DNA from: Escherichia phage T4
Sequence record: MZ375356.1
Strand: one strand, 5' to 3'
Length of the DNA: 64,000 bases
Both the position numbers and the translations under genes were made by a program. The notes beneath the pieces were generated by a model. The model saw only the letters and a program-made list of their open reading frames with translations, did no database searches and was not told the origin of the DNA. Each line of letters begins with the position of its first letter. Positions within the stretch are counted from its first letter, which is position 1. This document shows, one piece after another, positions 4,928 to 60,694 of this stretch.

Positions 4928-5481
4928 ATGATAATGATACTTCATTAGAAGTAACGCTTAGTGCATCATAATCTGTCGCGGTTACTTGGGCTACGCATTT
5001 AATTCTTTTTACTCCACTTGTAGTTGGAGTATAGCTAAATGTAGAGTTAGTTTCTCCACCAACTTGTGAATCATCTACATACCACTGATACGTAGCAGAT
5101 GCTCCATCAGGTTGAGAAGCTAAGGCAGCAGTAAATTGAACTGGGGTTCCAATCACTCCAGCCGCAGGACTAGCAGGAGTTACGGCTAAGGTAGTCGTCT
5201 GTGTCTTATTTTTAACTGTGATAGTTGTTGTCGCTTCAGCCGTTTCCGGGCCTCCTTCAGAAAGTGTATTTGTTGCAACTACTTTAATAGTCTTTTGACC
5301 GGCAGGTCCTTTTAGCATAACTAAAAGTTGCTTCAGCTCCATCTTGTGGAACATTATCTACGCTCCAAGCATATGTAATAGTTCCGCCTCCAGTTTGACC
5401 ACTGGGTGTAGCAGTAAACTGCTTAGTTTCATCAATAACCCCTGTAGGTGTTTTAGGAGTTATATCAACTGTAAAAGTCAT
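4926..5481 (-). pseudogene. hoc: Hoc outer capsid protein, frameshifted after ~55 codons and lacking C-terminal half
   Basis: ORF 5284..5481 begins MTFTVDITPKTPTGVIDETKQFTATPSGQ then changes frame; ORF 4926..5354 continues with Ig-like domain sequence and stops 83 nt before 24.3; total ~190 codons versus 376 aa remembered for T4 Hoc. Confidence 0.8.
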
Positions 5482-6219: not shown

Positions 6220-6748
6220 ATGTACCACTTTGTATATGAAACAACAAATCTAATAAATGGTAAAAAGTATATAGGAAAGCACTCTACTGATGACTTGAAT
6301 GATGGTTACCTTGGTTCCGGTAAGGCAATTCAGCAGGCTATAAAGAAATATGGTGAAAACAATTTCTCTAGAACAATACTAAAAGAGTTTAAAACTTCCG
6401 AAGAAGCGTACATGTATGAAGAAGAAATTATAACTCCTGAACTAATAAAAAGCAAAAATTATAATATGAAACCTGGTGGAATTGGTGGAATTGGTGGAAT
6501 TGTTATGACTACAGATGTTATAGCAAAGATGAAAGAATCTTCCGCTAAAAGATTTGAAAACTCACCGGGCACGGTATTAGGTAAAACTTGTTACTAATGG
6601 AACTAAAAATATTTTTATTAAACCTGGAGAACTTGTTCCAGAAGGATTTGTAAAAGGGATGGTTCATCCTAATAGAAAGTCCAGAAAAGGATGTAAAGTC
6701 AAACCGACTACCACAGGAACTTTTTGGGTCAATAATGGCGCAAAATAA
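6220..6748 (+). pseudogene. segE: GIY-YIG homing endonuclease SegE-like, at least two frameshifts
   Basis: ORF 6220..6597 has GIY-YIG motif (MYHFVYETTNLINGKKYIG); Seg-type C-terminal motif (IFIKPGELVPEGFVKGM) continues in the next frame to 6748; a second copy of that motif is in the third frame running into uvsW. Confidence 0.7.
6475..6501 (+). repeat. 9-bp tandem repeat (GGTGGAATT)x3 inside segE
   Basis: three perfect tandem copies encoding GGIGGIGGI. Confidence 0.9.
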
Positions 6749-6839
6749 ATTAATACAACCAGACGGTATTATTCCCGACGGATTTATTAAAGGTCGTCTC
6801 ATGAAAAGAGATTCTAAAGGCAAATTTAGTAAGGCAATT

Positions 6840-9489: not shown

Positions 9490-9505
9490 ATTGTTCTCTA
9501 TTCAA

Positions 9506-9549
9506 TTGTTATTGGTTGTTATTGGATGTTATTGGATGTTATTGGATGG
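9506..9549. repeat. tandem decamer repeat (TTGTTATTGG/ATGTTATTGG) x4 plus partial copy
   Basis: seen directly; lies in the uvsY upstream region between uvsY and gene 25. Confidence 0.9.
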
Positions 9550-37383: not shown

Positions 37384-37695
37384 TTACACCGCCATCTTTC
37401 CTTTAATAGGAGGGTGTGATACATAGTTGTTAAGAACGAAATCTTTAGGCCTAAGTTTAAGAACATATTTTAATTGTTCTTTAGTAGAAAGATATCGGAA
37501 TTTATAAGGTAGACCACTTATTACCAGCTCACAAAGCTCTTTAGGTTCACGCCTCAAAATTTCTTTACATTGTTCTACGTGATTCATATAGATATGAGTA
37601 TTACCACCAGAAAATATCAAATCCCCTGGAATAAGATTACACATCTTAGCTACAATATGAACTAACGTAGCATATGACGCAATATTAAACGGTAG
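37384..37695 (-). CDS. td: thymidylate synthase, exon 2
   Basis: begins CTACCGTTTAATATT (LPFNIASYA) directly after intron 3' end ...CATAATG. Confidence 0.9.
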
Positions 37696-38703
37696 CATTA
37701 TGTTCAGATAAGGTCGTTAATCTTACCCCGGAATTATATCCAGCTGCATGTCACCATGCAGAGCAGACTATATCTCCAACTTGTTAAAGCAAGTTGTCTA
37801 TCGTTTCGAGTCACTTGACCCTACTCCCCAAAGGGATAGTCGTTAGGCATTTATGTAGAACCAATTCCATTTATCAGATTTTACACGATAAGTAACTAAT
37901 CCAGACGAAATTTTAAAATGTCTAGCTGCATCTGCTGCACAATCAAAAATAACCCCATCACATGAAATCTTTTTAATATTACTAGGCTTTTTACCTTTCA
38001 TCTTTTCTGATATTTTAGATTTAGTTATGTCTGAATGCTTATGATTAAAGAATGAATTATTTTCACCTGAACGATTTCTGCATTTACTACAAGTATAAGC
38101 AGAAGTTTGTATGCGAACACCGCACTTACAAAACTTATGGGTTTCTGGATTCCAACGCCCGTTTTTACTTCCGGGTTTACTGTAAAGAGCTTTCCGACCA
38201 TCAGGTCCAAGTTTAAGCATCTTAGCTTTAACAGTTTCAGAACGTTTCTTAATAATTTCTTCTTTTAATGGATGCGTAGAACATGTATCACCAAACGTTG
38301 CATCAATATTGTATCCATTAATTTTAGAAAGCTCTTTAATCCAAAAATTTTCTCGTTCAATAATCAAATCTTTCTCATATGGAATTTCTTCCAAAATAGA
38401 ACATAAACACATTACCATGTTTGTTAAAAGACCTCTGAAGTTTTATAGAAGAATGGCATCCTTTTTCTAAATCTTTAAAATGCCTCTTCCATCTCTTTTC
38501 AAAATCTTTAGCACTTCCTACATATACTTTATTGTTTAAAGTATTTTTAATCTGATAAATTCCGCTTTTCATAAATACCTCTTTAAATATAGAAGTATTT
38601 ATTAAAGGGCAGTCCTACAATTTAGCACGGGATTGTCTACTAGAGAGGTTCCCCGTTTAGATAGATTACAAGTATAAGTCACCTTATACTCAGGCCTCAA
38701 TTA
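37696..38703 (-). mobile_element. td group I intron (1008 nt) carrying disrupted I-TevI
   Basis: 5' boundary CTTGGGT/TAATTGAGGCCTGAG and 3' boundary CTGAACATAATG/CTACCG match the remembered T4 td intron; 8 nt shorter than the 1016 nt remembered for T4. Confidence 0.9.
37843..38572 (-). pseudogene. I-TevI: I-TevI GIY-YIG homing endonuclease, frameshifted
   Basis: ORF 38375..38572 MKSGIYQIKNTLNNKVYVGS...KHGNVF then frame change; ORF 37843..38418 resumes ...CSILEEIPYEKDLIIERENFWIKEL to end ...KWNWFYINA; GNVF-EC junction lacks 2 nt. Confidence 0.9.
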
Positions 38704-39873
<1,170 letters not shown>

Positions 39874-40944: not shown

Positions 40945-41037
40945 TTAGCAGTATTGCCGATAGTTGTATAGTACCATAAAGCTTTATGCTTGTAAACCGT
41001 TTTGTCCATAAAGCTTTATGCTTGTAAACCGTTTTGT
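40945..41037 (-). promoter_or_regulatory. early-type promoter region with perfect 32-bp tandem duplication (40974..41005 and 41006..41037)
   Basis: each copy carries GTTTAC -35 and a GCTTTA MotA-box-like motif; only the proximal copy is followed by GGTACTATACAACTATC; element family also at 57760 and 60818. Confidence 0.5.
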
Positions 41038-60566: not shown

Positions 60567-60694
60567 TTTACACCATTCCAAATTGTTTCAACCACGGATT
60601 TTAAACCATTTTGATGAATATCCATTCCTACTACCGCTGAAACCTGTGCAACCCACCACGCACAAGCAATAAGTACAGAATTCAAAATTTTCAT
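60563..60694 (-). CDS. small hydrophobic peptide (43 aa; ndd.x cluster)
   Basis: ORF MKILNSVLIACAWWVAQVSAVVGMD... Confidence 0.3.
   Translation of the reverse strand: MKILNSVLIACAWWVAQVSAVVGMDIHQNGLKSVVETIWNGVK

Follow-up and report, generated by a model that had tools for sequence, protein, structure and literature searches.

A td group I intron with unaltered ribozyme segments and a disrupted I-TevI gene in a probable laboratory derivative of bacteriophage T4

The td locus

The stretch of DNA analysed here (64,000 nt of sequence record MZ375356.1; hereafter, the window) is colinear with, and more than 99.5% identical to, the T4 genomes NC_000866 and MT984581, corresponds to T4 coordinates ~105.3-168.9 kb, i.e., reaches the end of the reference map, and continues into rIIA. 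The thymidylate synthase gene td is encoded on the minus strand and consists of two exons separated by a group I intron, with the following features of the host gene and the intron.

38704..39252, minus strand: td exon 1, 549 nt, 183 codons, 3' end ...TTGGGT (from the ORF list and splice reconstruction)
37696..38703, minus strand: td group I intron, 1008 nt vs 1016 nt in wild type (from splice reconstruction and alignment)
37384..37695, minus strand: td exon 2, 103 codons and the stop codon, starting with CTACCG at 37695
38573..38703, minus strand: intron, 5' ribozyme segment, 131 nt, no difference from MT984581
37696..37842, minus strand: intron, 3' ribozyme segment, 147 nt, no difference from MT984581
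38596-38603, minus strand: late-promoter-like motif AATAAATA, located in the 5' ribozyme segment
38570..38583, minus strand: ATG start codon of I-TevI preceded by the Shine-Dalgarno sequence AAGAGG, both as in wild type

The intron begins with TAATTGAGG... at 38703 and ends with ...CATAATG at 37696, and the splice-site bases are T (the last base of exon 1) and G (the last base of the intron). Its removal restores an uninterrupted host gene, and the spliced exons encode a 286-aa thymidylate synthase (TS), as the original prediction, made from the sequence alone, had it; this TS is identical to that of wild-type T4 MT984581. The same prediction held that both splice junctions and the flanking exon sequence match the T4 td intron; indeed, compared with the wild-type td intron and its I-TevI gene (T4p237/T4p238 of NC_000866, and MT984581), the exons, the junctions and the ribozyme segments are identical (zero differences from MT984581 in exon 1), and so are the late-promoter-like motif, the Shine-Dalgarno sequence and the start codon of I-TevI. 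The two intron lengths of the prediction are both confirmed when MT984581 is taken as the wild type. In NC_000866 the intron is 1017 nt long, with one additional T in its 5' part that is missing from MT984581 and is an oddity of the NC_000866 record.

At the gathering threshold, a scan of the intron against Rfam gave no match (RF00028, gathering score 50). With relaxed filters, the Intron_gpI family (RF00028) yielded a partial match to the 3' core at 37744-37974 (40.3 bits, E=1.5e-8), which is below the gathering score. A full-length match is not to be expected because an ORF of ~730 nt interrupts the ribozyme.

Three deletions in the I-TevI gene

All 8 nucleotides by which the intron falls short of the wild type are missing from the I-TevI ORF, which differs from its wild-type counterpart by exactly three deletions, according both to the alignment with NC_000866 and OL964745 and to the BLAST variant list against MT984581 (a slash marks the site of the loss).

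38399..38410, minus strand: deletion of GA, junction GTGTTT/ATGTTC, frameshift at codon 57 (Glu57)
38326..38334, minus strand: deletion of TAA, junction GAGCT/TTCT, loss of Asn83
38300..38310, minus strand: deletion of TGC, junction AATAT/TGATGC, loss of Ala92

Apart from the 8 deleted nucleotides, the ORF is identical to I-TevI of T4 and, judging by this identity, is a descendant of that gene. The loss of GA from GTGTTT(GA)ATGTTC had been spotted in the original prediction, and so had the loss of two further codons, by which ELNSKINGYNIADATF becomes ELSKINGYNIDATF; the alignment and the variant list agree on all three losses, the two codons being those of Asn83 and Ala92. Thus, the ORF is neither identical to that of T4 nor continuous, and two fragments remain.

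38375..38572, minus strand: N-terminal fragment of I-TevI, 65 aa, comprising native residues 1-56 followed by 9 out-of-frame residues and a stop codon
37843..38418, minus strand: downstream ORF, 191 aa, comprising MVMCL followed by residues 58-245 without N83 and A92

In wild-type I-TevI, the Pfam GIY-YIG domain occupies residues 3-90. The 65-aa fragment covers just positions 2-43 of the 78-position GIY-YIG profile, and the remaining half of the domain belongs to the 191-aa ORF, where it shares a frame with the linker, zinc finger and DNA-binding domain. Two catalytic residues, Glu75 and Asn90, lie downstream of the break and are thus missing from the 65-aa product. The Pfam domains I-TevI_ZnF, NUMOD3 and I-TevI_DNA-bd are all complete in the 191-aa ORF, and none of them is found in the N-terminal fragment. 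Hence the claim that the frameshift separates the GIY-YIG domain from the DNA-binding domain had to be revised: the break falls within the catalytic domain, not between domains. The structures of residues 1-97 (PDB 1MK0/1LN0) and 130-245 (PDB 1I3J) are from the same protein, I-TevI, and no continuous ORF in the window runs from a full GIY-YIG domain through the linker and its zinc finger into the DNA-binding domain, as that of a functional member would.

Given that the 191-aa ORF retains the zinc finger, NUMOD3 and the DNA-binding domain in full, it could in principle be expressed as a nuclease-dead DNA-binding protein that keeps the role of autorepressor or homing-site binder, in which case the allele would separate the functions of I-TevI instead of being a null. 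We consider this very unlikely. The only Shine-Dalgarno-like sequence available to this ORF is GAGG, 13 nt upstream of the ATG, and the start codon lies 40 nt upstream of the stop codon of the N-terminal fragment, which makes termination-reinitiation impossible. Because the ribosome-binding site is badly placed and the ORF overlaps the end of the first one, translation of the 191-aa ORF appears doubtful. Furthermore, in the mutant clone T4_7t1 (OL964745, see below), the ORF is broken again by a deletion of TC, i.e., it is not being preserved.

Relation of the window to wild-type T4 and to passaged clones

Of the matches to the td region, the best is OL964745, deposited as 'Mutant Escherichia phage T4 clone T4_7t1', and not wild-type T4; the triple-deletion allele of I-TevI is present in this record only among the 188 phage records that contain the segment. 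The frd gene is frameshifted in the window as well (deletion of TA near 39540), and its two fragments are identical to UJD20450.1 and UJD20449.1 of OL964745, each found on that single contig only. A search of protein collections for exact matches to the I-TevI fragments of the window found none.

The window and T4_7t1 share the three I-TevI deletions, the frd deletion, several micro-deletions in frd.2, frd.3 and the flanks, and the rIIB-rIIA deletion at the end of the window. T4_7t1 alone carries three more changes in I-TevI (deletion of TA, A>C and deletion of TC) along with other private changes, whereas the window has private changes of its own, e.g., a 32-bp duplication at 41006-41037. Because there are private changes on both sides, the window is, by sequence comparison, a sister clone of T4_7t1 from the same CiPGr lineage, and a different genome; its best match among phage records is 99.8-99.9% identical, and none is fully identical.

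The annotation notes of both OL964745 and OL964735, the latter representing clone T4_3t3, carry 'T4583L' locus tags, and T4_583L is a named CiPGr mutant (Yuan et al., Nucleic Acids Res 2022, PMC9825161). In the CiPGr procedure, phages were taken through 300-600 passages, or more than 2000 generations, with host cells that contained SpCas9 along with a plasmid library of pooled guides and donors; for T4, the host was E. coli MG1655 and the library was aimed at non-essential genes, with at most 8 guides per gene and donors designed for deletions of 100 bp or of the whole gene (PMC9825161). Unplanned deletions of one or two bases were also recorded, 1322 of them in the T4 populations, and in T4 alone (PMC9825161). 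None of the designed 100-bp or whole-gene deletions was found within the window; the larger deletions that it does carry, in hoc (571 bp), ndd.2a-ndd.5 (~341 bp) and rIIB-rIIA (~880 bp), are not of the designed size. Clone T4_3t3, an early one from the study, has a 738-nt I-TevI CDS and a 582-nt frd CDS, both intact as judged from the annotation and the BLAST lengths, and it follows that the I-TevI and frd lesions arose during the experiment.

The same clone bears on the possibility that the allele arose in nature, in a wild T4-like phage whose intron had become fixed and whose homing endonuclease then decayed (the Goddard-Burt cycle). Naturally defective intron endonucleases do exist, I-TevIII of T4 among them (PMC2988022), and a frameshift followed by further decay, as observed here, is what would be expected of such a process. 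However, natural decay is difficult to reconcile with an intact I-TevI ORF in a clone from the same study, with the lack of the allele in all 187 other phage records that contain the segment, and with the makeup of the window, which is otherwise laboratory T4 (more than 99.5% identity) with many private micro-deletions in common with a deposited 'mutant T4 clone'. Accordingly, we regard natural decay as extremely improbable.

We conclude instead, with a probability of about 0.9, that the window comes from a laboratory derivative of T4 in which the I-TevI deletions arose in the course of Cas9 genome-reduction passage and were tolerated, while the intron was kept. Under this scenario, T4 would have been passaged on cells carrying Cas9 and the guide/donor library, and the ORF lodged in the P6a loop of the td intron would have acquired the three small deletions during the passage, as lesions in a dispensable gene.

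Small deletions across the window

The original prediction treated the I-TevI lesion as an event specific to this locus. This view did not survive the comparison across the window, in which micro-deletions in dispensable genes of a Cas9-passaged T4, the lesion included, numbered more than 50. The modern wild-type genome MT984581 served as the reference for variants, and the detailed count covers the first 48 kb of the window, where 54 variants were detected, 42 of them deletions of 1-3 nt, with 2 nt lost in 28 cases, 3 nt in 9 and 1 nt in 5. Beyond 48 kb, about 10 more small deletions are located in arn.1, arn.3, 52.1, ac, ndd.1, rIIB and at one intergenic site, so that the whole window contains more than 50 deletions of 1-3 nt, mostly of 2 nt.

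Three apparent features of the comparison were discarded. Many of the dinucleotide swaps seen against NC_000866 are oddities of that old reference and are absent in the comparison with MT984581. An apparent 9.8-kb deletion within 27000-50000 is an artefact of BLAST pieces being joined via a short repeated segment, which is shared by the alt.-3/alt.-2 and alc/rnlA intergenic regions; direct BLAST showed the region to be colinear. Finally, a 'scrambled patch' in segE (6463-6482) is an alignment artefact that in reality consists of a 3-nt loss and the gain of one 9-nt TGGTGGAAT repeat unit.

The distribution of the small deletions depends strongly on gene essentiality: none of the 33 frameshifting deletions falls within essential genes, which account for 17.1 kb of the first 48 kb (binomial P=6.7e-7), and the only two small deletions in essential genes (29 and 34) are in-frame. 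These figures indicate that the deletions are real mutations filtered by selection rather than noise. Errors of sequencing or assembly, with an intact I-TevI in the actual phage, might have been suspected given that many of the deletions lie in short AT-rich repeats, which are prone to errors on some platforms. Errors, however, would not respect essentiality; the GA deletion of I-TevI is not within a repeat; and deletions of this kind were seen in population reads by the authors of the passage study (PMC9825161). Furthermore, since the independently deposited and separately assembled genome OL964745 carries the same three I-TevI deletions, along with the frd lesion, the allele cannot be attributed to chance or to sequencing noise. 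An origin of the deletions through error is therefore highly improbable.

Several dispensable genes have been hit repeatedly, including 30.2 (4 deletions), segE (4), I-TevI (3), frd.2 (3) and arn.1 (3). Of the six genes for homing endonucleases in this part of the window, five carry deletions (segD, segE, I-TevIII, I-TevI and segG), with only mobE spared, and these six genes, which make up 12.5% of the non-essential gene sequence, account for 11 of the 32 deletions in it (P=0.0012). This excess fits full dispensability of homing endonucleases for phage grown alone. Within the td locus, when the window and T4_7t1 are taken together, all six independent lesions fall in the ORF, which represents 39% of the locus (P=0.004), and none affects the exons or the ribozyme segments. 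This is modest evidence that td and its splicing stay under selection, whereas the endonuclease does not.

As a separate observation, the density of lesions is ~3-8 events per kb of dispensable DNA; most are 2-nt deletions, and now and then a repeat unit of 9-32 nt has been gained.

Origin of the small deletions

Most of the small deletions drop one unit of a short tandem repeat, e.g., TATA, ACACACA, ACGACG or TAATAATAA, and repeat units have been gained as well, namely, 9 nt in segE, 2 x 10 nt in the vicinity of uvsY, and 32 nt in the interval from frd.3 to gene 32. These changes in repeat copy number look like slippage.

An alternative for I-TevI in particular is that each of the three deletions is an escape from SpCas9 that removed one guide's match and came under positive selection regardless of the function of the gene. 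Escape was proposed by the authors of the passage study for some of the small deletions, and the library, with its multiple guides for each non-essential gene, would have allowed for it (PMC9825161). Each of the I-TevI deletions is inside a possible NGG protospacer, at 11-12 nt from the PAM, and the accumulation of lesions in an I-TevI gene that was already dead (three in the window, six in T4_7t1) fits guide-by-guide escape. Across the first 48 kb, there is also an excess of deletions at this distance from the PAM (7 of 42 vs 6% expected; no excess at 7-10 nt), which, at an uncorrected, post hoc P=0.012, is a hint only. Against this, 73% of the non-essential positions lie within NGG protospacer/PAM coverage, so that all three deletions would be covered by chance with a probability of ~0.39, and genome-wide, 27 of the 42 small deletions are in any NGG protospacer/PAM vs 31.9±2.8 expected by chance, i.e., there is no enrichment, with 16 located outside all protospacers. 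On this test, we reject the view that the small deletions stem in general from CRISPR escape. The loss and gain of short tandem repeat units in most of the deletions and in the 9-, 20- and 32-nt gains points to slippage instead. The targeted but useful genes alt, nrdA, rnlA and pseT show almost no substitutions, and accordingly the Cas9 pressure on glucosylated T4 DNA looks weak. Moreover, the published Cas9 escapes of T4 are of types other than 2-nt deletions, being either substitutions or small insertions in the protospacer or minihomology deletions of 17-1000 bp (PMC8262927); the hoc, ndd and rII deletions of the window resemble this minihomology class, but the 2-nt deletions do not. On this evidence, escape is possible for the three I-TevI deletions, although we do not favor it. 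Our preferred interpretation is that the I-TevI lesions belong to the slippage-like class of deletions accumulating under relaxed selection, among which some may be Cas9 escapes.

Two other potential sources of the deletions were rejected. A mutator allele of the DNA polymerase can be dismissed for the sister clone OL964745, where gp43 is 100% identical to the wild type; the replication genes present in the window (32, 59, rnh, 30, uvsY, uvsW and 52) are unchanged. Spatial clustering of the deletions would point to error-laden synthetic donors or single repair tracts, and clustering within genes is not significant (P=0.14 at up to 30 nt and P=0.26 at up to 50 nt).

The small-deletion phenomenon was reported in T4 only (PMC9825161). 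Conceivably, an undescribed, T4-specific mutagenic process is involved, with slippage-prone repair or recombination-dependent synthesis resulting from chronic Cas9 attack and leaving 2-nt deletions dispersed about the targeted regions; we consider this unlikely, but, if it is the case, such a process would be neither guide-specific CRISPR escape nor ordinary spontaneous mutation.

Predicted effects on splicing, homing and regulation

Since the ribozyme segments and the exons are identical to those of the wild type, self-splicing of the td intron should persist and yield normal thymidylate synthase. Most of the I-TevI ORF is in a dispensable intron loop, and its overlap with the structured core is confined to the 3' end (PMC2988022); all three deletions are more than 440 nt away from that end. 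Splicing should thus be normal or, if anything, less disturbed.

With regard to the endonuclease, translation from the normal start codon would end after 65 residues as a result of the GA deletion, and the product would lack the DNA-binding domain. Because no protein unites the nuclease and the DNA-binding domains, the enzyme should be inactivated, and both the cleavage of td alleles that lack the intron and homing driven by the intron itself are expected to be lost. In wild-type T4, I-TevI is translated late, from a late promoter internal to the intron, and the protein represses this promoter by binding an operator positioned over it (PMC2988022); this autorepression should be lost too. The intron could still spread passively, or by using I-TevI supplied by a co-infecting phage. 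The lesions would have been tolerated since I-TevI gives nothing to a phage grown alone, and, with the ribozyme segments and the td exons untouched, the intron would still splice itself.

Comparison with other introns and implications

That a group I intron can be intact while its endonuclease is dead is well known. In the ORF-deleted td constructs of the Belfort laboratory, most of the ORF in the P6a loop was reportedly removed and self-splicing of td remained intact, which leads us to expect that the loss of 8 nt from the ORF is harmless to splicing. The constructs differ from the present case in that they are large deletions engineered in plasmids, whereas the ORF of the window is nearly full length and resides in a phage genome. 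Unlike wild-type T4 with its 245-aa I-TevI, the window, having lost 8 nt, is left with a 65-aa stub and an orphan 191-aa ORF. The nrdB intron of T4, with I-TevIII, is likewise a group I intron that splices itself and has been retained although its endonuclease ORF is dead; its mobility needs help in trans from mobE (PMC2790892). The two cases differ in origin and age: I-TevIII owes its defect to an old deletion of natural origin that is fixed in T4, whereas the I-TevI defect of the window is a laboratory one that appeared in the course of a few hundred transfers.

The I-TevI lesion is a mutation that arose in the laboratory and was tolerated in a dispensable gene; it does not represent natural decay. 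Given that I-TevI is known to be dispensable and that the lineage has been published, the finding is already known. It is ordinary for mutants of this lineage (PMC9825161), and its origin in serial passage on a Cas9 library in the laboratory removes most of its interest. Accordingly, the broken I-TevI of the window should not be counted as an instance of natural evolution of the td intron. The bias toward 2-nt deletions in Cas9-passaged T4 is the only thread that is possibly worth further work. For the td locus itself, the two sister clones provide a tidy internal control, in which the RNA function of the intron, and hence td, is under selection, whereas the selfish passenger is not.

Small Deletions and Homing-Endonuclease Genes

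Small deletions of 1-3 nt number more than 50 across the whole window when it is compared with wild-type T4, and 2 nt is the commonest size. Nearly all of them fall within dispensable genes or between genes, and isolated SNPs alongside them are very few. Six homing-endonuclease genes lie in the first 48 kb; five contain disrupting micro-deletions and only mobE is intact. Together the six received 11 of the 32 deletions that hit non-essential genes (P=0.0012).

Micro-deletions in homing-endonuclease genes
1658, segD
6463-6836, segE
33023, I-TevIII
38300-38410, I-TevI
42215 and 42316, segG

No enrichment of the window's small deletions at NGG protospacers was found. In the sister clone T4_7t1 (OL964745), gp43, the replicative DNA polymerase, is wild type.

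The gene next to td has also been broken by a 2-nt loss, that of TA inside a TATATAT run, which disrupts the frd reading frame and leaves ORFs of 109 aa and 87 aa, identical to UJD20450.1 and UJD20449.1 of OL964745. The adjoining td is unchanged.

39249-39828, minus strand, frd (dihydrofolate reductase), frameshifted; deletion site near 39540

Against NC_000866, the old T4 reference, the window shows about 60 differences that vanish when the modern sequence MT984581 is used instead. Among them are numerous swaps of adjacent bases, a single T in the td intron and the frame of mobE/nrdB.1. They are peculiarities of the old reference and were rejected as mutations.

Gains of Repeat Units

Repeat units have been gained as well as lost. 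Between gene 32 and frd.3, in intergenic sequence, the window clone has a perfect 32-bp tandem duplication that is absent from both T4_7t1 and wild type. Near the annotated oriF position, two copies of a 10-nt repeat have become four (+20 nt). In segE, one TTA unit was lost and one 9-nt TGGTGGAAT unit gained, and an apparently scrambled patch in this gene is only the BLAST rendering of these two events.

40974-41037, 32-bp tandem duplication, unit CCATAAAGCTTTATGCTTGTAAACCGTTTTGT
9505-9545, 10-nt repeat expansion between uvsY and gene 25, unit TGTTATTGGA
6445-6500, segE repeat changes

Larger Deletions

Three larger deletions were identified.

4932-4939 (T4 110196-110766), hoc, 571 bp
60628-60637 (T4 ~166508-166850), ndd region, ~341 bp
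62523 onward, rIIB-rIIA, ~880 bp

The first removes the C-terminal part of hoc, with only ~1 nt of microhomology at its junction, which is adjoined by a T>A change and a single-G deletion. It is not among the whole-gene or 100-bp deletions designed in CiPGr, the Cas9-based passaging study from which T4_7t1 comes. The second covers ndd.2a/ndd.3, ndd.4 and part of ndd.5. In the third, the 5' region of rIIB is joined to rIIA: the window tail aligns with wild-type T4 in two pieces, together spanning 2579 bp, and as a single piece with the CiPGr clones OL964745 and OL964735. This deletion is shared with T4_3t3 (OL964735), in which I-TevI is intact, and resembles the classical rII deletions, which cause rapid-lysis plaques.

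Changes in Structural Genes

Structural genes are altered only by six point substitutions spread over the long-tail-fibre genes 34, 35, 36 and 37 (gene 37 has three), by one in-frame 3-nt deletion each in genes 34 and 29, and by a single substitution in gene 48.

48482, 49525, 50577, 53495, 53536, 53542, tail-fibre point substitutions
47970 (gene 34) and 14530 (gene 29), in-frame 3-nt deletions
14980, C>T in gene 48

The tail-fibre substitutions and the in-frame deletions may be a sign that the phage adapted to its MG1655 host while being passaged.
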